DNA from: Candidatus Nomurabacteria bacterium
GTDB lineage: Bacteria > Patescibacteriota > Minisyncoccia > Phycocordibacterales > UBA918
Direction: 5' to 3'
Assembly (NCBI GenBank): GCA_020632095.1
Contig: JACKGF010000001.1
Location: 802,141-866,140, forward strand
DNA length: 64,000 bases
Under the pieces are notes generated by a model. The model was not told the DNA's origin, did no database searches, and worked only from the letters and a program-made list of their open reading frames with translations. Below are positions 2,115 to 30,120 of the stretch, in pieces (position 1 is the stretch's first letter; every line of letters begins with the position of its first letter). Made by a program: the position numbers and the translations under genes.

Positions 2115-4244
2115 CTACTCGGGTTTGCTTGGTGGTGTCAAACCTCGTTTTTTCGCAAATTCGGGGTCAATTTGTTTAATTGAAAGGCCAATTTTGCCAT
2201 CTTCTAACTTTGAGACTAGAACAGACACCACTTCCCCTTCCTTTAAAATACCATCGACAGTTTCAATTCTGAATGGCGCAATTTCAGAAATATGAATCAA
2301 ACCTTCATTGTATGAATCTAATTTAGCAAAGGCACCAAAGGTGGCTAGACGGGTGATGGTAACATCTAGTTTATCTCCGACTTTGTAAATTTTAGTTAAT
2401 GATTTGACTCTTTCGGCTGCTAGTTCAGCTGTGCCATTTTTGCCAGTAATGAAGACAGTGCCATCATCTTCAATATTGATTTCCTCGACACCTGTGCTGT
2501 CTTTTATTTCTTTAATAGTTTTGCCTCCCCCGCCTATTACTAGCCCTATTTGTTCTGGCAGGATTTGTAATACGATGATTTGTGGTGCACGCGGTGAGAT
2601 TGATTTTCTAGGGTTAGCTATTTCAGCGGTGATAACATCGATTATTTGCAATCTAGCAATACGTGCTTTCTCAAGCGCTTCGCCTAATATATGTAGTGGT
2701 ACCCCATCAACTTTTACATCCATTTGAATAGCTGTTACTCCTTCTGTGGTGCCGGCGACTTTGAAATCCATGTCACCAAATTCATCTTCTGGTCCTTGGA
2801 TATCAGTCAAGAGAGCATATTTGTCACCTGAAATCATAACTCCTGAGGCAATGCCGGCCACTGGTCTTGTGATCGGAACTCCGCCATCCATCAAAGCGAT
2901 TGTTGATCCACAAACTGAACCCATGGAACTCGAACCATTACTGGATAGAGTTTCTGATACCAGACGAATGGTGTATGGAAAATCAGTTTTTAAAGGAATT
3001 ACCGGCACTAAAGCTTTTTCTGCTAAAGCTCCATGTCCAATCATGCGTCGGTTAAACCCTCCTACTCGACCAGTTTCTCCAACTGAGTACGGAGGGAAAT
3101 TATAATGATGGATAAAAGTTTTTTTGCTGTCGGGCTCTTCGATTGTATCTATGACTTGTGATGAGTCAGGACCAGCCAAAGTTAGGGCCGAAAAAATATG
3201 TGTGCCACCACGATAAAAAATACCGGAGCCGTGCAGAGCTGGTGAAATGTTTCCAGCCTGTGCAAACAGTTCACGTACAGCATCCATACTTCGCCCGTCC
3301 GCTCGCTTTCCTTCCTCTAATGCTCCTCGATGTAGCTCAGTGTCAATCATGTCTTCAAAAAAATCACCCGCTATAGCTTCACTTAATTCAGCTTCTTTTA
3401 TAATGGTTAAAAATTCAGACTTTAATTCATAGATATGATTTTTACCAGCACGATTGCTAAAAATTGTTTGGGAAAGTTTTGTCTTAAAATCATTTTCAAA
3501 CAAAACTAATATTTCTTTCGGAGTGGTTCGGTCGGGCTCAGCTTGTTTTTGTTTTCCGATTACGGTCACAATTTCCTCTTGCCAATTTTCTAGTTGTTGA
3601 TGAATCTCAACAGAGGCTTCGAAGGCCGAAAGAATTTCTGATTCTGAAATTTCGTAGGCAGCCGTTTCAATCATGTTGATAGTTTTGTCTTTGCCACAAA
3701 CAAATAGTTCAAAGTCGAGCTTACCTTCTTCTCTCGCTTGATAGGTTGGATTAAAAATTATTTTTTTAGTTTCTTTTTCTCTTCCAATTCTTACAGCTCC
3801 AACCGGTCCGCTCCATGGAATGTCTGAAACTGAAAGTGCAAGTGATGTTCCGATAACTGCTAGGACATCAGGATCATCCTCACCTAGAGCGAGGACTGTG
3901 ACAACAATCTGAATATCTTTTCTTCCATGGTGATTGAAGAGTGGTCGAATAGTACGGTCAACAATTCGCGCTGACAAAACAGATTCGTCGCTTGGCTTAC
4001 CTTCTCGTCTGGTGTAGCGGCTACCAAGAATTCTTCCCGCGGCATAGAATTTTTCTTCGAACTCAACTGATAATGGAAAATAATGTACGTGACTATTTTC
4101 TTTTTCACTCATGACGGCTGTTACTAAAATTACTGTCTCGCCATATTTTAAAAGTACTGAACCATTCGCATGAGCAGTAAGATCACTAAACTCTGCTGTC
4201 AAAGTTTTTCCTGCTAGCTCTAGGGTAAAGGTTTGTTTTTTCAT
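2115..4244 (-). CDS. pnp: polyribonucleotide nucleotidyltransferase (PNPase)
   Basis: 709 aa with two RNase PH domains and C-terminal KH and S1 domains. The N-terminus MKKQTFTLELAGKTLTAEF is typical. Confidence 0.95.
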   Translation of the reverse strand: MKKQTFTLELAGKTLTAEFSDLTAHANGSVLLKYGETVILVTAVMSEKENSHVHYFPLSVEFEEKFYAAGRILGSRYTRREGKPSDESVLSARIVDRTIRPLFNHHGRKDIQIVVTVLALGEDDPDVLAVIGTSLALSVSDIPWSGPVGAVRIGREKETKKIIFNPTYQAREEGKLDFELFVCGKDKTINMIETAAYEISESEILSAFEASVEIHQQLENWQEEIVTVIGKQKQAEPDRTTPKEILVLFENDFKTKLSQTIFSNRAGKNHIYELKSEFLTIIKEAELSEAIAGDFFEDMIDTELHRGALEEGKRADGRSMDAVRELFAQAGNISPALHGSGIFYRGGTHIFSALTLAGPDSSQVIDTIEEPDSKKTFIHHYNFPPYSVGETGRVGGFNRRMIGHGALAEKALVPVIPLKTDFPYTIRLVSETLSSNGSSSMGSVCGSTIALMDGGVPITRPVAGIASGVMISGDKYALLTDIQGPEDEFGDMDFKVAGTTEGVTAIQMDVKVDGVPLHILGEALEKARIARLQIIDVITAEIANPRKSISPRAPQIIVLQILPEQIGLVIGGGGKTIKEIKDSTGVEEINIEDDGTVFITGKNGTAELAAERVKSLTKIYKVGDKLDVTITRLATFGAFAKLDSYNEGLIHISEIAPFRIETVDGILKEGEVVSVLVSKLEDGKIGLSIKQIDPEFAKKRGLTPPSKPE

Positions 4245-19473: not shown

Positions 19474-20886
19474 ATGGGAAGCATTAGATTCATAATCGAC
19501 GGTAGTAAACTCGAGGCGGACTCCGTCTATGGGTATCCGTATAGCCTGAGTATGATCCAAAGGGGTGTCGATTCTCACGATCAGGAGCTCGGTGTCATCG
19601 AGGAGAAACAGGTCCCGGACTACCTAATAAGTGTCTTCCGAGCCATGCAGGTCGCGATCCCGCCGGAGAACATATATACCGGCGCAATCAGCAATCAAGC
19701 TCCAAGCGCGATGGTCGATACTATGTTCGGTGTCGGACGTCGTAGCTCCGCGACCTTCACTTTCCTCCCGACCGAGCTCACGGCTCATGGTCACCGCGCT
19801 TGGGTCAAGCATAAGTACTGGACGGAAGGTGGGGGCGAGTGTTGGATTGGCTCCCTGATAGAGCACAATGCCTACGTCGCCGGTTTCTGGCTCGACGAGC
19901 GGGCCGCCCAGCAGTGGGTGGAGGACCTTACCAAGCACCCGCTCGGTGAGGTCCTGCTCAAGAGCACAACACCCTACGCCGTTGTGTTCCAGGATCACGT
20001 CAATCCGGCCGAGTGGAAAGGTGTGAGGATCAATTATTTCTCGTACTGCCTGCTTTCTGAGGATGACAACTACCTCCTGAACACGATCGGTGGAGGATGT
20101 CCAAAGGGCGTTTACCGTTCATTCGATGTTTCCTTCGAGCAGTGGAACGGAACGGTCTACGTTCACGCGCCCGAGCTCTGGCAGTTGGAGCGAGACAACA
20201 AACGCGACGTCTTCCCACTTAGCCCGTCCTACCTCATTCTTCGTGCCCGCAACGGTGCCCAGGAAGTGCTTCTCACAGGTACCGACCAAGACAAGAACGG
20301 CTGGACGAAATACGTCTATGAGCTTCCTAGGCGTAAGTCCTACAACCCTCTCGACGCCTCGGGCAATTGGGCCACCTTCTGGCCCAGTTACAATGCTTGG
20401 GAGGAATTCGCCTTCGCACAACACATCAAGGCGCGTCAGGTGAGTACCCTCCACAGCGACGACTGGGGCGACGAGGATGACCCCTTCTTCATTCCACTCA
20501 CACAAGAGTACGCGAAGAAGGCCTGGGCCGCGGGCGCTACGAAGCTCCCGGCCGAGAGCATCAAGCTCAAGGTCAGCCAGTTCAAGGCGGGATACGGAGA
20601 GGGAGATCGATTAATCAACGATGAGCAAAACCCTCTGAATGGTGCCGTTATCTACGACGGATTCGACTTTGTCTCGGGTTTAGTGGGCCGGATCGTGGAT
20701 TGGATCTGGCTCAAGAAGGAATCGGCCTGCGTGTTTCTGCCTATGGGTTTCGTAGGCTGGATTCAGTGTCAGAAGGGGCTGGCAATCTCCCATGCCACGG
20801 TGGTTCGTAAGCTCGGCGACAAGTCGCGCGATCCGACTGAAATAACAGTATTTTCGGATGGTAGTTGCATCTACCCCACCACCTAG
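19474..20886 (+). CDS. hypothetical protein (470 aa), compositionally foreign (about 58-60% GC)
   Basis: Long ORF with GC3-rich codons. I recognise no motif. Confidence 0.55.
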   Translation: MGSIRFIIDGSKLEADSVYGYPYSLSMIQRGVDSHDQELGVIEEKQVPDYLISVFRAMQVAIPPENIYTGAISNQAPSAMVDTMFGVGRRSSATFTFLPTELTAHGHRAWVKHKYWTEGGGECWIGSLIEHNAYVAGFWLDERAAQQWVEDLTKHPLGEVLLKSTTPYAVVFQDHVNPAEWKGVRINYFSYCLLSEDDNYLLNTIGGGCPKGVYRSFDVSFEQWNGTVYVHAPELWQLERDNKRDVFPLSPSYLILRARNGAQEVLLTGTDQDKNGWTKYVYELPRRKSYNPLDASGNWATFWPSYNAWEEFAFAQHIKARQVSTLHSDDWGDEDDPFFIPLTQEYAKKAWAAGATKLPAESIKLKVSQFKAGYGEGDRLINDEQNPLNGAVIYDGFDFVSGLVGRIVDWIWLKKESACVFLPMGFVGWIQCQKGLAISHATVVRKLGDKSRDPTEITVFSDGSCIYPTT

Positions 20887-21463: not shown

Positions 21464-22003
21464 ATGCAACTTGTCGAACTACCTATATCTGGAAGAGCTT
21501 CCCTTATTCAAGTTCAAGAGATTCTTGCTGAATTTGGTCAGCTGATTCCATGGCTAATGAAAATTGGTGGTCTGTGCTATTCGACCAATCGACGGTATTT
21601 CGAGGAGCAGTTACACCAGAGGATAGGGTGTAAACCGGGTTCCATTTCCCTGTATCAACTCGTAAGTTCTGGTCGTGAGAGAGACTACGTAGGAGGATTA
21701 TTACGCTTTGCAGACGTCCCTGAGAAGTTTTTAGATTCTCGTCTTCAAATGCTCATGGCACAACTCGTTACCCAAGGTGCCATGTACATATCTTGTCTTC
21801 AAGTGCACGGAGTAAAACGTGGCTTGGGATATGGCTATGGCGCAGAAATAGTTCTTAAGGCAATTAAGCGTATCCAGCAAGAGTGGCCGATTGTTTGGGG
21901 AGTTTGTGAACCTAGATTGCTCAAGTGGTATGTTTCATTGGGAGCAGAGGTTCTGGACCCAGGGATTAACCGTGACCATCTGGCCTTAATAGTATGGAGA
22001 TGA
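21464..22003 (+). CDS. hypothetical protein, possible GNAT-like acyltransferase
   Basis: VKRGLGYGYGAEIV resembles GNAT motif A. The call is weak. Confidence 0.35.
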   Translation: MQLVELPISGRASLIQVQEILAEFGQLIPWLMKIGGLCYSTNRRYFEEQLHQRIGCKPGSISLYQLVSSGRERDYVGGLLRFADVPEKFLDSRLQMLMAQLVTQGAMYISCLQVHGVKRGLGYGYGAEIVLKAIKRIQQEWPIVWGVCEPRLLKWYVSLGAEVLDPGINRDHLALIVWR

Positions 22004-22025
22004 GAACCCCGAGCATCTCGTTGCT

Positions 22026-22060
22026 CTAGCCCGCCAATTCTGTTGGCGGGCTAGCTTTTT
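22026..22060 (+). terminator. intrinsic terminator
   Basis: ctagcccgccaattctgttggcgggctagcttttt. Confidence 0.65.
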
Positions 22061-22080
22061 ACCCACAGGCATATTATTTT

Positions 22081-22380
22081 GTGGAAGTATTTGTTAAGCT
22101 ACGTTATATGGAACTATCAGAACGCTACATCCAAAAGCTTGAAAATGAAGGGTTTGCTTCGGTATATGAGGGGCAGGACGCGGCTGGTAAGGTCTATTCG
22201 GAACGGATTTCCAAAGGAAAGCTATCAATCTTGGTGACCGATGGTTCCCTCACTTTCACCATGTCTGGACGAGAGAAAGTTGTGGCGGCTGGTCAACGCT
22301 TCGATATACCGCCATCAACAACATACTCACAAGTCGCTGGTCCCCTGGGAGCGATTTATATTGTGGGTGAAATGGACTAA
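22081..22380 (+). CDS. small hypothetical protein (cupin-like?)
   Basis: 99-aa ORF. The start codon is uncertain. Confidence 0.3.
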   Translation: MEVFVKLRYMELSERYIQKLENEGFASVYEGQDAAGKVYSERISKGKLSILVTDGSLTFTMSGREKVVAAGQRFDIPPSTTYSQVAGPLGAIYIVGEMD

Positions 22381-22384
22381 GGGT

Positions 22385-23095
22385 TTAAATATCCTTATAA
22401 AACCGTATTTTTTCGTCAGGCTCGAAGCTGTTTTTTAATATTTCTTGAGTATTTGGCAGGTCACTTTTTTCGTAGAAATCTTCCGCATCATTGTGTGATC
22501 GGCCGCCAGCCATATGTCGGGCGACCACATTGGCTCGCATGGTTGATAAATCACCAACCACCGCTAGTTGGTAGCTACACAAATCACGAATTTTGGCCCA
22601 TTCGCGGTTTTTTCTGAGTAGCCATTGCCCTTCAAGTAGGAGTAGAGTATTGCTGTCGTGTATGGAAATAGCGTCTGGTATCGGATTATGAGTAGTTCTG
22701 GAATACGTTGGGAAGGAAACGTCTTCTCCGGCGGTGAAGGATTGTAGTTTTTTGGTTAGAAGCGGAAGATTGTAGGTATCGTATCTACCTTTCACCGCTC
22801 GCAGATTCATTCCATCTAGAACATCATTTGTATAATGAAAAGCATCCAGGCCGACAGGCACATATTCGAAGGGTAAATTGCGAGCTTTAAAGAAATGACC
22901 TACTAAAGCCACAGTCACAGATTTTCCCGACCCAGCTGGTCCACTTAGTCCAAATACTTGCCTGCCCTTTCCTTTATCATTATATATCTCGCTAATTTTA
23001 TCGACCAAACTCTCATAGTATTTAATTTGTTCGTCTGAAAGTGCTGACAAATCTACAGCTTGCCCCGCCACTTCTATTGTTGATGGGATTTTCAT
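22385..23095 (-). CDS. P-loop nucleoside/nucleotide kinase-like protein (PRK/uridine-kinase-like)
   Basis: Walker A is FGLSGPAGSGKS. The size and layout resemble PRK-family kinases. Confidence 0.45.
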   Translation of the reverse strand: MKIPSTIEVAGQAVDLSALSDEQIKYYESLVDKISEIYNDKGKGRQVFGLSGPAGSGKSVTVALVGHFFKARNLPFEYVPVGLDAFHYTNDVLDGMNLRAVKGRYDTYNLPLLTKKLQSFTAGEDVSFPTYSRTTHNPIPDAISIHDSNTLLLLEGQWLLRKNREWAKIRDLCSYQLAVVGDLSTMRANVVARHMAGGRSHNDAEDFYEKSDLPNTQEILKNSFEPDEKIRFYKDI

Positions 23096-23252
23096 ACCTA
23101 CATTCTACCAGTTGTTGCAAACAATCCGAATTCAATACAAAGAGAAAGAAAAGCACATAGGTCAAAAACTAACTTAGCCCACTCAATATTGTGCTGGTAT
23201 TGTTTACAACTCAAATCGAACTTATGTAATTAGTATATAATATACGAACAGT

Positions 23253-23912
23253 ATGGTACGGAATCAAGTGAATTATGAACAAGCTATCAATCTTCGGAAA
23301 CGTGGTTTTACTTTAGCTGAGATAGCTAAAGTGTGCGATATATCTAAGTCCACCGCTTCATTATGGTTGAAAAATAAGGCTTTTTCGGAGCTGGTAACTA
23401 AACAAAATATAAAACGCGCTGGCCAAGAAAACGCCAAAAGATTGAGTCTAATCAGCAAAGCGCGCGGTGGTGAACGCAAGCAAAGATACTTAGACGCACA
23501 AACATCAGCTAAGACAGAGTTTGCCCACTACAAGGCCAATCCTGCCTTTGTAGCGGGTGTAATGGCCTATGTGATGTCGGGAGACATGAGTGATGAGCAT
23601 ACTATCAGACTCAGTCATACTTCCCTGTCAGCCCACCGTATGTTTATCAGCTTTGCTACTAAGTTCCTGGGAGTAGAAAAAAACCGGATTCATTTATGGC
23701 TACACCTCTATGAAGGTGCATCAGAAGAAAGAATGATGAAAAAATGGTCTAAAATAACCACTATTCCCTTCTCTCAGTTCTATAAAAATCAATTTGTTAA
23801 TAAAACCAGCCGCAAACCATTGCACTCTGGCGTCGGAAATACTATAATCGGCAGCACCTATCATAAACAAAAGCTAAAAGCCTGGGTGCATTTAGCGGAA
23901 AAAGAATGGTAG
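23253..23912 (+). CDS. HTH-domain protein, unknown function
   Basis: It has an N-terminal helix-turn-helix (RGFTLAEIAKVCDISKSTASLWLK). Confidence 0.45.
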   Translation: MVRNQVNYEQAINLRKRGFTLAEIAKVCDISKSTASLWLKNKAFSELVTKQNIKRAGQENAKRLSLISKARGGERKQRYLDAQTSAKTEFAHYKANPAFVAGVMAYVMSGDMSDEHTIRLSHTSLSAHRMFISFATKFLGVEKNRIHLWLHLYEGASEERMMKKWSKITTIPFSQFYKNQFVNKTSRKPLHSGVGNTIIGSTYHKQKLKAWVHLAEKEW

Positions 23913-23925
23913 AATAGACATATAA

Positions 23926-23996
23926 GCGGCCATGGTTAAGTGGTATAACGGGTCCTTGCCAAGGATCAGTCGGGGTTTCGATTACCCCTGGCCGCA
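23926..23996 (+). tRNA. tRNA-Gly (anticodon GCC)
   Basis: The acceptor stem is GCGGCCA/TGGCCGC. The anticodon loop is TTGCCAA. The T-arm is GGGGT-TTCGATT-ACCCC. A hairpin at 24003-24022 follows. Confidence 0.85.
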
Positions 23997-24022
23997 CAAA
24001 TATAAAGACCCGCAATGGTCTT

Positions 24023-24186
24023 TAGGCGTCTGTGGCCAGGGAGCAAGCAAACTGCTTTGCTTGCGGGTAATCGAAACCGCCGGAGTGATGTATTTTGCTC
24101 TTTTCCTAGAGCAAAATACGAGCGAGGTGTGACCCGTGGCACTTATGAGCAAAGCGAATTTGTGACCGTCAGGTTTCGATAATTTT
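24023..24186 (+). other. tRNA-linked structured element A (homologous to element B)
   Basis: It shares blocks with 25961-26129: gcaaactgctttgc inside a 9-bp covarying stem, aatcgaa.cgccggag.gatgt, cgagcgaggtgtgacccgtggcactt, gagcaaagcgaa and gtgaccgtcagg. It ends with ggtttcgat, which echoes the tRNA-Gly T-arm. Confidence 0.4.
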
Positions 24187-24412
24187 TAGGGTGATGTCCG
24201 TACATAATAGACCTAGTAAAGATGAGCGTGTGCGAATGTAAGTAGACAATTAGTTTCTATAGAGTGCATAACTGGGGATAAGGAGTGGATAGGTGGATAA
24301 AGGACAAAAAGGGTTATAAAAGGCACTTGTCCTTTATATATTCTTGGTATAATAAACAAAATCATGTTTCATTTCACATGAAACGGGAAATATTTGTAAA
24401 TACTAAGTTTCA

Positions 24413-24827
24413 TATGAAACAAACTGATAAACAAGGCAGAAAAAACGAAATTGGAGCCTACGGGGAAGAAATTGCTATAAATTACCTTAAAAAGCTAGGT
24501 TTTACTATTTTAGATACAAATTATCTTAAAAAATGGGGTGAAATTGACATTGTGGCACGTGAAACAGACAAAATTCACTTTATTGAGGTAAAAACAGTTT
24601 CATATGAAACAAAGATTGACTTAAAAAATGCTATTTCACGTGGCACCTGGCGCCCAGAAGAAAACGTACACGTTTCTAAGATACAAAGACTGAACCGAGC
24701 GATTGAAAGTTGGATTATGGAAAATAACTATAATGATGAGTGGGAAATCGACGTTATAGCGGTGCGAATGGTTCCACGTGAAAAATACGCTACCGTTAAA
24801 TACATAGAAAGTGTCGTTTTTGGTTGA
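24413..24827 (+). CDS. YraN-family (UPF0102) PD-(D/E)xK endonuclease-like protein
   Basis: GAYGEEIAINYLKKLGFTILDTNY...GEIDIVARETDKIHFIEVKTV matches YraN. The likely start is the ATG at 24413 inside a palindrome. The listed ORF (24285) begins earlier. Confidence 0.55.
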
Positions 24828-24845
24828 TTGTGATAAGATTTTTGT

Positions 24846-25076
24846 ATGAGTGATTTAAAACTTGGTAAGTACAAGCATTACAAAGGTAATTTCTATGAAG
24901 TTATTGGTTGTGCCAGACATAGTGAGACCTTAGAAGAGTTAGTGGTTTATAAAGCGCTGTACATATCAAATGATTTCGGGAAAGACGCATTGTGGGTCAG
25001 ACCAAAAGCTATGTTTATGGAAAGCATTGAATTGAAGGGCGTAATGGTTCCTAGATTTGAGTACATCCGTCAATAA
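24846..25076 (+). CDS. DUF1653-domain protein
   Basis: KYKHYKGNFYEVIG...VVYKALY is typical of DUF1653. Confidence 0.55.
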   Translation: MSDLKLGKYKHYKGNFYEVIGCARHSETLEELVVYKALYISNDFGKDALWVRPKAMFMESIELKGVMVPRFEYIRQ

Positions 25077-25091
25077 TTTCACATGAAACAT

Positions 25092-25121
25092 GCTAAAACG
25101 TTTCACGTGAAACGTTTTAGC
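25092..25121. promoter_or_regulatory. 30-bp perfect palindrome gctaaaacgtttcacgtgaaacgttttagc (operator and/or terminator)
   Basis: Its core TTTCACGTGAAA belongs to a palindrome family that recurs at about 24366-24384, 24407-24420, 24554-24565, 24597-24610, 24635-24647, 24774-24786 and 25077-25089. Confidence 0.4.
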
Positions 25122-25152
25122 AAATTTATGTATGTTAGTTTATAATATTTAG

Positions 25153-25537
25153 ATGAAATTTTATATTGCTGCACGAACGTCGCAAATTCCTAGAGTTAGG
25201 GAATATATCACAATGCTTGAAGAAAAAGGTCATGTTTGTACGCATGATTGGACTCAGCACGAGAAAGCAGAGTTGCAAAGACCCTACGAGGAACATTTAG
25301 AACTAGCTTCTGAGTTTGCAGTGAAGGACGTGGGGGGGGGTAGTTGAGGCTGAAGTTTTCATAATACTGGGTGATCAGTCTGGTTCAGGTATGTATGTTG
25401 AAATGGGAGCTGCTTTAGCTAGCAATACGAAAATATATGCAATTGGAGATTTTAATGATGCTACCGTTTTCCATTTCCATCCTTTGGTGACAAGAGTAAA
25501 CACGTTCGAAGAGGTGTTACTAGATTTGGGTACTTAA
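25153..25537 (+). pseudogene. nucleoside 2-deoxyribosyltransferase-like protein interrupted at a G9 homopolymer
   Basis: The N-terminal part reads MKFYIAARTS... and the C-terminal part reads EAEVFIILGDQSGSGMYVEMGAALASNTKIYAI. Together they match the NDT/DNPH1 family. They are in different frames on either side of G9 at 25332-25340. Removing one G fuses them into about 128 aa. Confidence 0.5.
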
Positions 25538-25683
25538 AACTCGCTTTTTTTCTGACTAGATGTTATATTTTGCAGACTTTGATCGTACTTTGGCGGTCAA
25601 GGAAGCGGGGTAGATAGCTGGGTGTATGCGAAGCATACAACCTCTCTTCACTCGGTCATAGTGTGCTGCAAGCAAAGCTTGCT

Positions 25684-25745
25684 CCAGTAAATTTAAATAC
25701 TTAAAATTAAAGTTCACTTTCATTTTAAGTATTTAAATTTACTGG
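25684..25745. repeat. long perfect hairpin (24-bp arms, about 14-nt loop)
   Basis: ccagtaaatttaaatacttaaaat ... attttaagtatttaaatttactgg. Confidence 0.6.
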
Positions 25746-25846
25746 ATTCAGCACCCTGCGACTCTCGCTCATCGGGGTGTAAGCAGAAGCTTCCACCCCC
25801 ACGTTCGGAAAGTAAATATAAGCAAGCTTTCATTTATTCCCTCACT

Positions 25847-25917
25847 CGGGGTGTAGCATAGTGGTAGTGTACTCGGTTTGGGACCGAGCGGTCCGGGTTC
25901 GATTCCCGGCTCCCCGA
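25847..25917 (+). tRNA. tRNA-Pro (anticodon TGG)
   Basis: The anticodon stem is CTCGG/CCGAG with loop TTTGGGA. The T-arm is CCGGG-TTCGATT-CCCGG. The acceptor stem is CGGGGTG/CTCCCCG with one T-T mismatch. A 19-bp-arm palindrome (25918-25960) follows. Confidence 0.8.
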
Positions 25918-25960
25918 CAAAATTATAAAATCCTAGCCTTTGGCTAGGATTTTATAATTT

Positions 25961-26129
25961 GAGAGGGGAGAAGAGGCAAACTGCTTTGCCTCTGTCCGGA
26001 ATCGAACGCCGGAGCGATGTGAGCCTGCGAACGAGTGAGGTGTGTCACGCGGCACTTGCTAGTTTGTGAGCAAAGCGAAACAAACTAGCTTAGTGACCGT
26101 CAGGACGATTCCCGGCTCCCCGACAAAAT
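25961..26129 (+). other. tRNA-linked structured element B, ending in an exact 24-bp copy of the tRNA-Pro 3' end
   Basis: It shares blocks with element A. The stem agaggcaaa-ctgc-tttgcctct covaries with gcaagcaaa-ctgc-tttgcttgc in A. Positions 26106-26129 (cgattcccggctccccgacaaaat) equal 25900-25923. Confidence 0.45.
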
Positions 26130-26165
26130 AAAAATCACCCTCGGTTTGTTCCGAGGGTGATTTTT
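26129..26165 (+). terminator. intrinsic terminator
   Basis: aaaaatcaccctcggtttgttccgagggtgatttttg. Confidence 0.65.
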
Positions 26166-26179
26166 GTTATACTTTTTGA

Positions 26180-27274
26180 ATGAAAGATTCTCAACAAAAA
26201 CACTTTTTTGATAAGCAGATCTCACTGACAGAATGGTTTGGGTCGATGAATCATGCTGATAGTGAACTACATCGTGAGGAGGATAATCAAAAAAGGGAAA
26301 GATTGGCGGTTCTCAATAAGATTTCTGGTTTACCTTTCGATCGCCCGGTCCAATTTGATTTAGTCGACGTGGTTAATCCTACTGAAGATTTTAAGGTTTA
26401 TTATGACTCTCATATTGACCATAAGTGTGCTTTACGTCTAATTCCTAAGAATGTAAGTTTGCCAAAATTACGAATGCGGGGTCAGACTGTGGGTGAGGTG
26501 GTGACAGGGTGGCTAGCTCAACAGGAAATCGACGTTTCTCAATATCGAGCAGATTTCATTCCACATTCTGACATATCATACTGGGCAACTATTTTTGTTG
26601 TAAATAATGAGGGGATACGAGGTGAAATTATTGCCGATAGGCACGAAAAACTCACGCAAGGTTACTACGAGCAAGAAAAACCTATTGCTTTTTCTTACGA
26701 TTTTGCAAGTCGTGTTTGGAAATTGACCCCAGAGAGTGACAAGGCGGAAAAACACCTTGAACAAATTATCAAACATCTTTTTTTTACACCTGAACAACAA
26801 TTAGAAGTGGAGGAGATGTTGCAAGGTAGATTTGTCGATGGCTTTTTGCAGGGCTATTTTGAGACGGTTGATACTGATCAGGGATTTTGGTTTATTGATT
26901 ACAATCGCCTGATATCTACCGAAGTACCAACTCAATTAACTGGTAGAAAAGAAGATTTTGTTGTTTGTGGAAGCGTTGCATCTTCAGGTGAATATAAAGG
27001 TAGTGTTATTGTTGTTTCAGATCCGTCTGATACTAATTTCATCCCAGGTTCAGTACTGGTGTGCGATATGACTTCGCCAGATTATTTACCACTGATGCAA
27101 AAGGCTGGGGCGATTGTGACTAATCGGGGAGGGGTGACTTGCCACGCGGCAATCGTGGCTCGAGAATTGGGTAAACCTTGCATTGTTGGTACAGGCAACG
27201 CTACAGAAGTGCTTAAAAATGGTGATTTGGTGCTGGTGAATGCAACACAAGGAACGGTGAAACTGATTAAGTAA
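26180..27274 (+). CDS. PEP-utilising enzyme mobile (phosphohistidine swivel) domain protein
   Basis: The C-terminal TNRGGVTCHAAIVARELGKPCIVGTG is the PEP-utiliser His domain. The N-terminal roughly 250 aa are unassigned. Confidence 0.6.
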   Translation: MKDSQQKHFFDKQISLTEWFGSMNHADSELHREEDNQKRERLAVLNKISGLPFDRPVQFDLVDVVNPTEDFKVYYDSHIDHKCALRLIPKNVSLPKLRMRGQTVGEVVTGWLAQQEIDVSQYRADFIPHSDISYWATIFVVNNEGIRGEIIADRHEKLTQGYYEQEKPIAFSYDFASRVWKLTPESDKAEKHLEQIIKHLFFTPEQQLEVEEMLQGRFVDGFLQGYFETVDTDQGFWFIDYNRLISTEVPTQLTGRKEDFVVCGSVASSGEYKGSVIVVSDPSDTNFIPGSVLVCDMTSPDYLPLMQKAGAIVTNRGGVTCHAAIVARELGKPCIVGTGNATEVLKNGDLVLVNATQGTVKLIK

Positions 27275-27334
27275 GTCTGTGAAAAAACAAAACTACAGGT
27301 AACATTTTCTCTCTGTAGTTATCAAGTAAATTTT

Positions 27335-27949
27335 ATGAAACAACAAGTATTTTATATTCATGGGGGGAATGCTTATACCCGGTATGAAGATTTATTGGCT
27401 GATTTAAGGACAGCTACCATCTATGATTTGCCTTGGGATAAGCCAGTGGTGCGTTGGACTAATACTTTACGCGAAGATCTTGGGGATTCTTATGAAGTAT
27501 TCAAGCCTACGATGCCAAACAGTAAGAATTCTAAGTATCAAGAGTGGAGGATTTGGTTTGAGCGGCACTTTGAATATTTGCACGACGACATAATTTTGGT
27601 TGGCTGGTCACAAGGGGGAATGTTTCTAACTAAGTATTTACTCGAAGAAACCTTACCTTTTAGTGTTAAAGCCTTGTTTTTAATAGCTGCACCGTTTAAG
27701 GCGGATGATTTTGGGGGTGAAGATGGTGGAGATTTTATTTTTGATGTAACTAGAGTAGGGGAGTTGGCTGAAAAGGTCGGTAAAATAAGCATTTTCCACT
27801 CAAAAGACGACTTTGTAGTGCCATATGAACATGCTTTGAAATATAAAGAAGTATTGCCGGAGGCGGAATTTGTTAGCTTCGAGGATAAAAACCACTTTTT
27901 AGTGGCGGAATTACCGGAATTGATAGAGAGGATTAAGGATATTGGGTAG
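27335..27949 (+). CDS. alpha/beta-hydrolase (RBBP9/YdeN-like serine hydrolase)
   Basis: It has the nucleophile elbow GWSQGG and is about 200 aa. Confidence 0.55.
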   Translation: MKQQVFYIHGGNAYTRYEDLLADLRTATIYDLPWDKPVVRWTNTLREDLGDSYEVFKPTMPNSKNSKYQEWRIWFERHFEYLHDDIILVGWSQGGMFLTKYLLEETLPFSVKALFLIAAPFKADDFGGEDGGDFIFDVTRVGELAEKVGKISIFHSKDDFVVPYEHALKYKEVLPEAEFVSFEDKNHFLVAELPELIERIKDIG

Positions 27950-27962
27950 GATAAGGTGGTGA

Positions 27963-28007
27963 AACCGGTCAGAAAATCTTCTTTAGAAGATTTTCTGACC
28001 GGTTTGG
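27963..28007. terminator. bidirectional terminator (nested inverted repeat)
   Basis: aaaccggtcagaaaatcttctttagaagattttctgaccggttt. Confidence 0.6.
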
Positions 28008-28058
28008 GTTGCTTTTGATTAATAATGATTATGTCAAAGACTCTAGCTAAGTTACTCC

Positions 28059-28691
28059 GTGAAAGAATGTGCTTGTTCGTCCGTCTACGTATATAATGGT
28101 CACTACATGGCGGAGCAGACAAATAACAATGTAAGTGACCACGAAGCTCGTTTTTTGAAAGCTTTCGAGGAATATAATGACGCTTTGTTTCGGCACGCGC
28201 ATATGCGTATTAGTAACCGAGAAAAGGCAGTTGACTTGGTGCACGACACGTTCACTAAAGTTTGGTCATATATTCGCGATGGCTACGAGATAGATAACTT
28301 TCGTCCATTTTTATATAAAGTACTCAATAATTTAATTATTGATGAGTATCGCAAACGAAAGGAAGCATCGCTCGATGCCATGCTGGAAGTTGAAGGAGTC
28401 GATGAGGGTTCATTTGAGGAATTGTCGGAGAGTACGGTGGAAGTATTAGCGGCCACTATCGACGGCCGCAAAGCCTTCGAGTTACTTGAAGAACTGCCAG
28501 ACCAATACCGAGAAGTTATTCTCCTTCGTTTCGTCGACCAGCTTGGACCAAGGGAGATCAGTGAGTTGATAGAAGAAAGTGAAAATGTCATCTCGGTTAG
28601 AATCCATCGCGGTCTAAAACTACTAAGGCAGAAAATTGAAGCTAAAGACGAATACGCCGAGGAGCAACGTAAAGCCAAACAAAAAAAATAA
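28059..28691 (+). CDS. ECF-type RNA polymerase sigma factor (sigma-70 regions 2 and 4)
   Basis: Region 2 is DLVHDTFTKVW...FRPFLYKVLNNLIIDEYRKRK. Region 4 is REVILLRFVDQLGPREISELIEESENVISVRIHRGLKLLRQ. The true start is probably the ATG at about 28107. Confidence 0.8.
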   Translation: MKECACSSVYVYNGHYMAEQTNNNVSDHEARFLKAFEEYNDALFRHAHMRISNREKAVDLVHDTFTKVWSYIRDGYEIDNFRPFLYKVLNNLIIDEYRKRKEASLDAMLEVEGVDEGSFEELSESTVEVLAATIDGRKAFELLEELPDQYREVILLRFVDQLGPREISELIEESENVISVRIHRGLKLLRQKIEAKDEYAEEQRKAKQKK

Positions 28692-28698
28692 CAACAAC

Positions 28699-30120
28699 AT
28701 GAAACGATTTAGCGAACAGCTACATAAAAAGGCCATGACTGTAAAATTACAGGCGGCTGAAAAAAATGAACTGCGAGAGCGGTTGGTTTCATATATGGAA
28801 TATCACCCGTTGCCGGCTGAGCTAAAGACTGTCCCAGAGAAAAACACTTTGGCTTCCAAGGTACCAATTTTTGCTGAGCCATTCCGAGTGGTAACACTAC
28901 CTTTTTCAATAATATTTAAATCTTCGGCGGTAGCAGCAGCTCTAGTGTTGATTGTGATCCCTTTTGTAGCGGAAAAAGCTGTACCAGGGGATACTTTGTA
29001 TGCAGTTAAGGTTGGTTTTAATGAAGGGTTGCGTAGCACCCTTACTTTTGACTCATATCAGAAAGTTGAGTGGGAAACTAAGATGCTTAATCGTCGGATT
29101 GCCGAGGTTCATTTGCTAGAAAGCGAAGGACGTTTGACTGATGAGATTGAAGCTGAAGTGGCAGAAGCGGTGAAGACTCACACTGAGAACGCACAGCGGG
29201 AAATTGAGGCTTTACGAACTGAAGATGCTGATGCAGCGACGATTGCTTCTATTGCTTTTGACACCACTCTTGAAGTGCAATCAAATTCTCTTCGAAATGG
29301 GGAAGGAGTAGATGTGGTCGAGGGAGATTTGGAAGCGTTTTCTTCACGAGGATCTAGTTTGATTGCTGGGGTGATTGATAAATCTCGAAGTGAATCTGAG
29401 GCTAAGAACGCGTCTACTACACTACCGTCTTATGATAAGTTGATGGCTCGGGTGGAGCAAAATACCACTCGTATATACGAGCTTCTAGATAGTATCAAAC
29501 AAACTACCGACTCAACTCAACTGGTTGATGTGACTAGGCGGATTGAAGACATTGAGCGTTCTATTCAAGCTGTAATCGAACAGTCTGATGAAGATGGTGT
29601 TCAGGCTAGGAAAGATTTGGTAGGAATTTTGCAACGGACACAAAAACTGATTGTCTTTGTAACAGAGTTAGATATTTCTAACACGGTTGATATTGAAACT
29701 TTAGTACCAGTAGTAATGACTGAGGCAGAAGAGTTGGCGGTCACTGAACGGATGACAAATGAATTGAATACAAAATTAGAAAAAATTGAGCTAGTGCTAG
29801 CTACTATGAAGGAAGGTGATGTGAAGGCTAAGGTGAAGTTTGCGGTCAACTCAATAACAGAGTCTTCAGTAAAGATGGGAGAGTCAACAGAGTTTACCAA
29901 CTTCGAGGCAATTGCTAAGGATGCTCTTGTCTTAGCAAACGATACAATTACTTTACTTGAACAAAATAAGTATAATCTGAATCAGAGTATTGAGTCTGAA
30001 ACAGCTTCTTCAACTGAGGCTGTGGGTGGAAGAGGAACCACGACTGCTTCTTCAACTATTGAAACTCCAGTAGTTGAGTCTGTATCTACAGAAAGAGGTA
30101 CTTCCATGGAGTGGGAATAA
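28699..30120 (+). CDS. putative anti-sigma factor (single TM, DUF5667-like extracytoplasmic domain)
   Basis: It follows the sigma gene. It has a TM helix (AALVLIVIPFV) and the PGDTLYAVKVGFNEGLRS motif of DUF5667 partners. The listed ORF starts at 28636 but the likely ATG is at 28699. Confidence 0.5.
   Translation: MKRFSEQLHKKAMTVKLQAAEKNELRERLVSYMEYHPLPAELKTVPEKNTLASKVPIFAEPFRVVTLPFSIIFKSSAVAAALVLIVIPFVAEKAVPGDTLYAVKVGFNEGLRSTLTFDSYQKVEWETKMLNRRIAEVHLLESEGRLTDEIEAEVAEAVKTHTENAQREIEALRTEDADAATIASIAFDTTLEVQSNSLRNGEGVDVVEGDLEAFSSRGSSLIAGVIDKSRSESEAKNASTTLPSYDKLMARVEQNTTRIYELLDSIKQTTDSTQLVDVTRRIEDIERSIQAVIEQSDEDGVQARKDLVGILQRTQKLIVFVTELDISNTVDIETLVPVVMTEAEELAVTERMTNELNTKLEKIELVLATMKEGDVKAKVKFAVNSITESSVKMGESTEFTNFEAIAKDALVLANDTITLLEQNKYNLNQSIESETASSTEAVGGRGTTTASSTIETPVVESVSTERGTSMEWE

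Follow-up and report, generated by a model that had tools for sequence, protein, structure and literature searches.

A window of 64,000 nt from contig JACKGF010000001.1 of a Candidatus Nomurabacteria bacterium (assembly GCA_020632095.1, positions 802,141–866,140, forward strand) carries a nucleoside 2-deoxyribosyltransferase-like (NDT-like) gene that is interrupted at a run of nine G. Among six independent assemblies of one population, this run has seven, eight or nine G (G7, G8 or G9). It is probably a real slippage-prone tract that creates an ON/OFF polymorphism of the NDT-like gene. The gene lies with yraN and a DUF1653 gene between tRNA-Gly and tRNA-Pro (Table 1). These three genes are no functional cassette, and a group of palindromes among them is best read as a candidate ParB centromere (parS) cluster.

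Tract length and reading frame of the NDT-like gene

Five further assemblies were recovered by exact-protein look-ups, and their DNA is 99.2–100% identical to the window. The window, from a metagenome-assembled genome (MAG) at NCBI, has G9 and a 64-aa product (MCB9814557.1, H6784_04030). G9 and a truncated gene are also found in ERZ27309268 (L025). G8 and an intact 127-aa gene are found in ERZ27309364 (L002) and ERZ28655857 (L003, SAMN08389252). G7, which splits the gene into 62 aa and 48 aa, is found on an 84-kb contig of ERZ27248697 (L001) and in the Logan assembly of SRR8206192 (L024). Each tract length is therefore seen twice, in different samples. A sequence-only reading of this DNA had seen a possible phase-variation switch in the G run; comparison of relatives now places G7 and G8 beside G9, so the length is not uniform.

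The tract begins one codon past the putative catalytic Asp59. The in-frame length is G8, which reads GTG GGG GGG GTA and encodes V60 G61 G62 V63. The G9 frame reads GTG GGG GGG GGT AGT TGA and stops after 64 aa, and the first product of G7 ends after 62 aa. The frame shift at the tract therefore removes the C-terminal catalytic half, including the invariant Glu83. That G9 breaks the frame and that loss of one G repairs it had been recognized from the sequence; the repaired protein was put at about 128 aa and in fact has 127 aa.

Outside the tract, L003 and L024 match the window without a mismatch. In L002, L003 and L024, no other indel relative to the window is present, and across 22,903–30,078 the window and L001 differ in nothing else. 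Locus L111, from the same run as L024 (SRR8206192), matches the window at 100% identity over 4,369 nt. The tract differs where 1–5 kb of flank has zero substitutions, and this is the sole indirect hint of frequent, reversible switching. The NDT-like gene has no further lesion in any of the six assemblies. Exact look-ups retrieved no products on record matching G5, G6, G10 or G11. Further alleles were also sought in JGI metagenomes by a scan with a DNA pattern, which had 0 matches, and an exact look-up of another window protein gave no match.

The G9 tract is the sole G or C run of at least 7 in the 64-kb window. Its codons are rare, with GGG at 11% among those for Gly and GTG at 23% among those for Val.

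The repaired protein scores 24.0 bits against PF05014, under the Pfam gathering cut-off of 28.8 bits. PF05014 is matched by 16 of 16 aligned family members at E ≤ 0.01 (best 4.7e-8), and the family profile matches NDT chains in PDB at E = 0.004. Fifteen intact homologues of 123–153 aa span 96–99% of the repaired protein at 38–64% identity. Because they align with it end to end, the break is a true single-base frameshift in a real gene. The AlphaFold (AF2) model of the repaired protein has a predicted local distance difference test score (pLDDT) of 93.5. Its best Foldseek matches in PDB are the CMP N-glycosidases BcmB and MilB, DNPH1 (Rcl), and nucleoside 2-deoxyribosyltransferases, with probability 1.0 and template modelling (TM) scores of 0.5–0.69. 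The top 50 matches are mostly chains of these proteins, with a few TIR-domain, DprA and ThsB chains. Since fold, homologues and family matches agree, the PF05014 assignment is backed despite its low score. The NDT-like identity proposed from the sequence is borne out by fold and homologues.

Y4, E83 and G85 never vary within the family alignment, and D74 is nearly invariant (at least 90%). E83, the invariant Glu of YVE[ML]G in a G-x-x-x-E-[LM]-G loop, lines up with the catalytic Glu of NDT (VELG in 8qc0), and a Tyr in the N-terminal beta-strand (MKFYIA) is likewise shared with the superfamily. Position 59 is Asp in 12 of 16 aligned proteins and lies 24 residues ahead of E83; the Asp–Glu spacing in DNPH1 is likewise 24 residues. 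From this spacing, Y4 and D59 are the putative catalytic Tyr and Asp. The product probably serves in salvage, as an N-glycosidase or transferase of (deoxy)nucleotides or nucleosides. Unlike the solved structures of the superfamily, the window protein has only 127 aa, and it shares 14–21% identity with them. It belongs to a distinct subfamily confined to Patescibacteria and DPANN archaea. Because the gene is intact in ~96 of 99 loci, the family is a working enzyme in general.

Slippage and other readings of the tract

Gain or loss of one G in replication would move the gene between the intact G8 form and the truncated G7 and G9 forms. The window would then hold an OFF allele. The length changes would come from slipped-strand mispairing within the living population and would be reversible.

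Several points weigh against this reading. The tract lengths are those of assembly consensus and not of individual reads. Four of the contigs are short (0.65–1.5 kb), poly-G is error-prone, and the window may stem from a long-read hybrid assembly. Under a first-order model, ~0.11 G or C runs of at least 9 are expected in 64 kb, so the G9 tract by itself is only mildly unusual. The tract is lineage-specific and not conserved: no G or C run of at least 6 is present in ~100 homologues from Patescibacteria and DPANN archaea. At the tract position, the closest relatives have GAT ATT NNN GGN GCN, and the window has GAC GTG GGG GGG GTA. Maintenance of the tract is not supported, given its absence from these homologues and a single such tract in 64 kb. 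Finally, three other species have a broken NDT-like homologue. L005 (4934–5309, CP060229.1) has an in-frame TGA and a frameshift at an A run, L020 (2915–3204) has an in-frame stop and an internal deletion, and in L021 (5001–5356) the frame shifts at an A7 run, almost at the protein position of the window's G tract. Neutral loss of a dispensable gene accounts for these broken homologues no worse than a selected switch does. The frameshifts of L021 and perhaps L005 could be errors, because they lie at A runs in possibly long-read assemblies.

Some of these points would also fit an artefact, in which every population truly has G8 and the other two lengths are homopolymer miscalls arising from short-read poly-G errors or unpolished long-read indels. 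Homopolymer indels are the commonest assembly error, coverage may be low because the four contigs are short, and the window comes from a single 997-kb contig. The A7 frameshift in L021, on a 784-kb contig, could be the same type of error. However, G7 and G9 each occur in two different samples. G9 is also found in a short-read k141 assembly (L025), and G7 is on an 84-kb k141 contig. A and T runs of 7–8 bases show 0 differences in 13 pairwise comparisons, against four differences in five for the G tract. The one other indel in the 14.6 kb compared lies outside homopolymers. The two long contigs have G7 and G9, which are two G apart and both out of frame; together with the finding of each length twice, this is a pattern that random errors in the consensus of a true G8 tract do not predict. 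Miscalling is therefore an unlikely source of the variation.

A plain pseudogene, dead in the species and with G9 fixed, would agree with the broken homologues of L005, L020 and L021. It would also agree with the NCBI annotation, which places only a 64-aa hypothetical protein (MCB9814557.1) on the 997,259-bp Candidatus Nomurabacteria bacterium contig. Two assemblies of the same population nevertheless have G8 and an intact 127-aa open reading frame (ORF), no allele has a further lesion, and the family is largely intact elsewhere. G7 and G8 in near-identical relatives rule out a plain fixed pseudogene, and gene death in the species is very improbable. Because the 64-aa annotation stands despite intact alleles in the population, homopolymer "pseudogenes" in MAGs are not to be trusted at face value.

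The truncated alleles could also be leaky. Transcriptional or ribosomal slippage would restore some full-length protein, and tract length would tune expression; this is compatible with slippage in the DNA, and the two could act together. A shift of −1 on G GGG GGG TAG (G7) or of +1 (G9) would serve, and Gly-tRNA would re-pair perfectly on GGG. Some leakiness is possible because a one-base slip in G7 or G9 regenerates the exact G8 protein. Polymerase slippage at long homopolymers rescues frameshifted genes in reduced-genome endosymbionts, as with the poly-A frameshifted genes of Buchnera and Blochmannia. The window resembles these in its reduced genome, its single-base frameshift at a long homopolymer and a gene that is otherwise intact. 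In contrast, their tracts are poly-A and fixed in the frameshifted state, whereas the window tract is poly-G, varies in length in the DNA and has an in-frame allele. No stimulatory structure accompanies the tract, the tract is not conserved, and slippage at G runs of 7–9 is usually inefficient. As judged from the sequence, leaky expression appears rather doubtful.

The slippage-prone tract, which remains the preferred reading, resembles the poly-G/C contingency loci of Neisseria, Haemophilus, Campylobacter and Helicobacter. In both, an intragenic G run of 7–9 toggles the frame by ±1 base, near-identical genomes carry several lengths, and the tract consists of rare codons. The window thus has a tract within an ORF, length variation and a frame toggle. 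Unlike those loci, the host belongs to the ultra-small Patescibacteria, the gene encodes a cytoplasmic nucleotide-salvage-type enzyme and not a surface structure or restriction-modification system, and related species do not conserve the tract. Because there is only one such tract, no set of phase-variable genes is seen in the 64 kb. Rare codons in the tract, and an NDT-like gene free of other lesions in every allele, speak for selection. An adaptive contingency locus is conceivable, if somewhat improbable; a neutral hypermutable site in a dispensable gene is quite possible, at a little under an even chance.

A narrower proposal is that a selected contingency locus toggles a deoxynucleoside monophosphate (dNMP)/nucleoside N-glycosidase-type salvage enzyme in an ultra-small Patescibacteria symbiont. 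This is speculative and doubtful. If true, some subpopulations would degrade scavenged (deoxy)nucleotides or modified nucleotides, and others would save them for replication. This would be bet-hedging on nucleotide economy in an organism without de novo nucleotide synthesis, and the first homopolymer ON/OFF switch described in the Patescibacteria radiation.

To our knowledge, homopolymer-slippage phase variation is known almost only from host-adapted pathogens, in genes for surface structures and restriction-modification. Full-text literature searches on the Candidate Phyla Radiation turned up no description of phase variation at homopolymers. Closest to it is a Gracilibacterium with a hypervariable 9-mer repeat that is in frame. 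With a length-variable poly-G tract in a metabolic salvage gene of uncultured, reduced-genome Patescibacteria, the mechanism would reach a new lineage and another class of gene.

Elsewhere, two stretches of Patescibacteria DNA that are 96.5% identical differ in a poly-G run, with G9 in L017 (1841–1849) and G6 in L016 (~3609–3614). A NUDIX-like ORF begins ~60 nt downstream of the run. The pair is a second hint of poly-G length instability in the radiation.

Table 1. Coordinates, strand and details of features in the tRNA-flanked block (window positions)
Feature	Position	Strand	Details
tRNA-Gly (anticodon GCC)	23926–23997	+	ARAGORN; Rfam RF00005, 62.7 bits; left edge of block
Conserved segment 5′ of yraN	24272–24355	+	Three DnaA-box-like repeats (GGGGATAAGGAGTGGATAGGTGGATAAAGG), hairpin AAAGGACA...TGTCCTTT, TATAAT box
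parS-like palindrome 1, ATTTCACATGAAAC	24371–24384	.	3′ of yraN −10 box
parS-like palindrome 2, GTTTCATATGAAAC	24407–24420	.	Overlaps yraN ATG
yraN (UPF0102, PD-(D/E)xK nuclease), 137 aa	24414–24827	+	Pfam PF02021, 69.1 bits
parS-like sites inside yraN	24551–24566, 24597–24610, 24632–24647, 24770–24785	.	
DUF1653 gene, 76 aa	24846–25076	+	Pfam PF07866, 95 bits
Two parS-like sites	25076–25089, 25100–25113	.	Second is the centre of perfect 30-bp palindrome GCTAAAACGTTTCACGTGAAACGTTTTAGC (25092–25121)
Promoter-like TTAGCA-18-TATAAT, NDT-like gene	25117–25146	+	10/12 consensus matches; 6 nt 5′ of ATG
Interrupted NDT/DNPH1-superfamily gene	25153–25537	+	N-terminal ORF 25153–25347 (64 aa); C-terminal half in +1 frame to 25537
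Poly-G tract, G9	25332–25340	+	Codons 60–63 of NDT-like gene
tRNA-Pro leader	25560–25846	+	Conserved extended −10 TGTTATATTTTGCAGACT, hairpin 25683–25746, tRNA-5′-end-like hairpin CGGGGTGTAAGCAGAAGCTTCCACCCC
tRNA-Pro (anticodon UGG)	25847–25918	+	ARAGORN; Rfam, 64.4 bits; right edge of block

parS-like palindromes and the conserved gene block

The palindrome GTTTCAYRTGAAAC clusters in 24370–25114, and the remainder of the 64 kb has none. The window has 5 copies of TTTCAYRTGAAA, all within 24372–25112, against 0.07 expected. The same 740 bp hold 13 of 13 CAYRTGAAA half-sites, against 3.3 expected across 64 kb, and 7 of 7 matches to the 14-mer with at most 2 mismatches. The chromosomal parS consensus is TGTTNCACGTGAAACA, and the mycobacterial form is GTTTCACGTGAAAC (PMC7022226). 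Sites 25099–25114 and 24551–24566 match the parS consensus at 14/16 positions and six others at 12–13/16; the rest of the 64 kb holds only four chance-level 12/16 matches. Site 25099–25114 matches TGTTTCACGTGAAACA at 14/16, with a perfect 14-bp core. The 30-bp palindrome around it lies within a 32-nt hairpin (25091–25122) that is scored terminator-like.

Relatives share the cluster. Half-sites number 53 and full palindromes 15 in seven yraN-bearing loci (52.7 kb); the 96 other loci (442 kb) have 13 half-sites and no full palindrome. The clusters lie at 1261–2125 in L004, 4112–4885 in L005, 5723–6210 in L006, 3661–4085 in L027, 2230–3540 in L047 and 2348–3080 in L110. In L047, parS-like sites also occur within an unrelated neighbouring gene, and their presence in unrelated coding sequence argues for a role of the palindrome at the DNA level. 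The sites resemble chromosomal parS/ParB sites in their consensus match, their clustering within 740 bp, their partly coding location and their conservation in relatives. Unlike typical parS, half of them are centred on CATATG or CACATG and not CACGTG, and ParB binding here is a prediction. A Pfam scan of 18 window ORFs and a motif grep detected no ParB. The best reading of the group is a candidate parS cluster. An operator for LexA, NrdR, Rex or a local repressor was considered, as was an RNA hairpin; these were dropped on the parS consensus match. Sequence specificity of YraN was also rejected as the source of the motif, as YraN cuts single-stranded DNA (ssDNA) with relaxed specificity (bioRxiv 10.1101/2024.02.06.579203).

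Gene orientation flips at ~19 kb, and GC skew climbs steeply from 24 kb. From this switch and rise, a replication origin may be close, and the region may be an origin-proximal core. The DnaA-box-like repeats 5′ of yraN are GGGGATAA, GTGGATAG and GTGGATAA, with matches at 24273 and 24292 and a perfect TGTGGATAA in L110. The hairpin after them is terminator-like. The segment is kept in L004 (1378–1450), L005, L006 (6240–6300, reverse strand) and L110 (~2240–2330). An origin at this triplet is not supported: the window has 17 DnaA boxes against 17.4 expected, which is no enrichment, and the GC skew shows no clean V. No dnaA was seen. Identification of parS would give a usable landmark for the partition/origin region in these genomes.

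The identities of all three genes, first proposed from the sequence, held up, with Pfam support for YraN and DUF1653 (gathering cut-offs 23.6 and 23.5 bits); the flanking tRNAs were recovered by both ARAGORN and Rfam. YraN matches PDB 3fov (UPF0102) and has GEIDIVA and FIEVKT motifs. Its NCBIfam equivalog score is 81.8, under the cut-off of 111, and an alternative start at 24378 would give 149 aa. The DUF1653 protein matches PDB 3be3, an uncharacterised protein, at E = 3e-7. The two genes are separated by 19 nt and are probably co-transcribed. The NDT-like gene has the 30-bp perfect palindrome upstream and its own promoter-like site. This site is a consensus match only, and such sites are no commoner in the region than by chance.

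The same sequence-only reading had also suggested that the trio forms a small cassette of accessory or defence-like type at a hotspot bracketed by tRNAs. The adjacency of PD-(D/E)xK and NDT-like proteins between tRNAs would fit this, as would short repeats with partial tRNA 3′ end copies after both tRNAs. Conserved synteny argues against it. The order helix-turn-helix (HTH) protein, tRNA-Gly, yraN, (DUF1653), NDT-like gene, tRNA-Pro, hydrolase, sigma factor and DUF5667 recurs in L004 and L005. It is rearranged or partial in L006, L021, L027, L047 and L110, and tRNA-Arg(tcg) is usually close. Syntenic proteins are 55–82% identical in the closer relatives (L004, L005, L006), and yraN of L021 is 36% identical. 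tRNA-Gly is also 5′ of yraN in L004, L005 and L110, and tRNA-Pro adjoins the NDT-like gene in L004, L006, L027 and L110. Variable presence, with the cassette swapped and flanks kept, was not seen: yraN, the NDT-like gene and the tRNAs are in the synteny of L004, L005, L006, L027 and L110.

PADLOC gave no significant match: two marginal partial ones (E ~1e-3, 15 bits) fell to YraN and the HTH protein, and DUF1653 and the NDT-like protein had no match of any kind. GC content of the trio is normal for the window, and the repeat matches parS. YraN is a widespread recombination nuclease. It has been described as an ssDNA endonuclease that resolves transformation displacement loops (D-loops) with ComM (bioRxiv 10.1101/2024.02.06.579203), and this role would make yraN a core recombination gene. 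The window protein shares UPF0102 membership and the GEID...EVK catalytic motif with the reported YraN. Unlike that protein, it has ~10 extra residues after EVK and scores under NCBIfam cut-offs, and no comM was seen nearby.

The YraN-DUF1653-NDT neighbourhood did not extend beyond one other genome: the full trio is in 1 of ~103 other loci (L005), and DUF1653 lies beside yraN in the window and L005 only. yraN adjoins the NDT-like gene in 7 of ~103 loci, all in one clade. In the other ~95 loci, the NDT-like gene has different neighbours, usually without yraN. Functional coupling of the trio was rejected on this distribution. Because the yraN-NDT adjacency is limited to one clade that also shares the tRNAs, it reflects shared ancestry. 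A defence cassette is thus highly improbable. The trio sits in a conserved, perhaps origin-proximal core block with candidate parS sites of the chromosome, and these sites would explain a conserved gene order that resembles a cassette.

tRNA-linked elements and neighbouring features

The region ahead of tRNA-Pro (25538–25846), with a T-run and the leader, is conserved and was aligned with L004 (2587–2810), L006 (5361–5537), L110 (3505–3692) and L027. Leaders of the relatives have an extended −10-like box, GTGGTATATTTTGCGGACT. A variable hairpin is followed by hairpin CGGGGTGTAAGCAAAAGCTTTCACCCC, which mimics the 5′ end of tRNA-Pro itself. In the hairpin at 25683–25746, which has 25–31-nt arms, the central ~14 nt (25708–25721) are exactly reverse-complemented in L025 (481–544, ERZ27309268). 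L025 differs there from the window, L001 and L024 at 25708, 25714, 25715 and 25721. This is either a small inversion/template-switch polymorphism or an assembly effect.

Two related elements of ~190 nt directly follow the tRNAs: element A (~23998–24190) after tRNA-Gly and element B (25919–26134) after tRNA-Pro. They share the blocks GCAAACTGCTTTGC, GCCGGAGYGATG, ACGAGYGAGGTGTG, TGAGCAAAGCGAA and GTGACCGTCAGG. In each element, the T-arm of the tRNA just ahead of it recurs in antisense, and the element closes with a repeat of part of that tRNA's 3′ end (for example, 25900–25928 recurs at 26106–26134). Neither has an Rfam match, and element A is absent from L004. An Rfam scan of the tRNA-flanked block detected the tRNAs and no other known RNA. 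The elements may be small tRNA-targeting insertions or structured RNAs.

A gene for a protein with a phosphoenolpyruvate (PEP)-utilising mobile domain lies at 26180–27274. L004, L005 and L006 lack it at this position, which marks it as a lineage-specific insertion that separates tRNA-Pro from the hydrolase gene. On the other side of the block, the minus strand encodes a uridine-kinase/PRK-family P-loop protein at 22385–23095. A 470-aa ORF with no Pfam match lies at 19474–20886 and has 54–58% GC, against ~41% for the genome. Just past it, a 384-bp patch (21865–22248) contains 21 of the 22 substitutions and a single-base indel (22055) between the window and L001, which are 99.76% identical. This patch is locally hypervariable or recombined.

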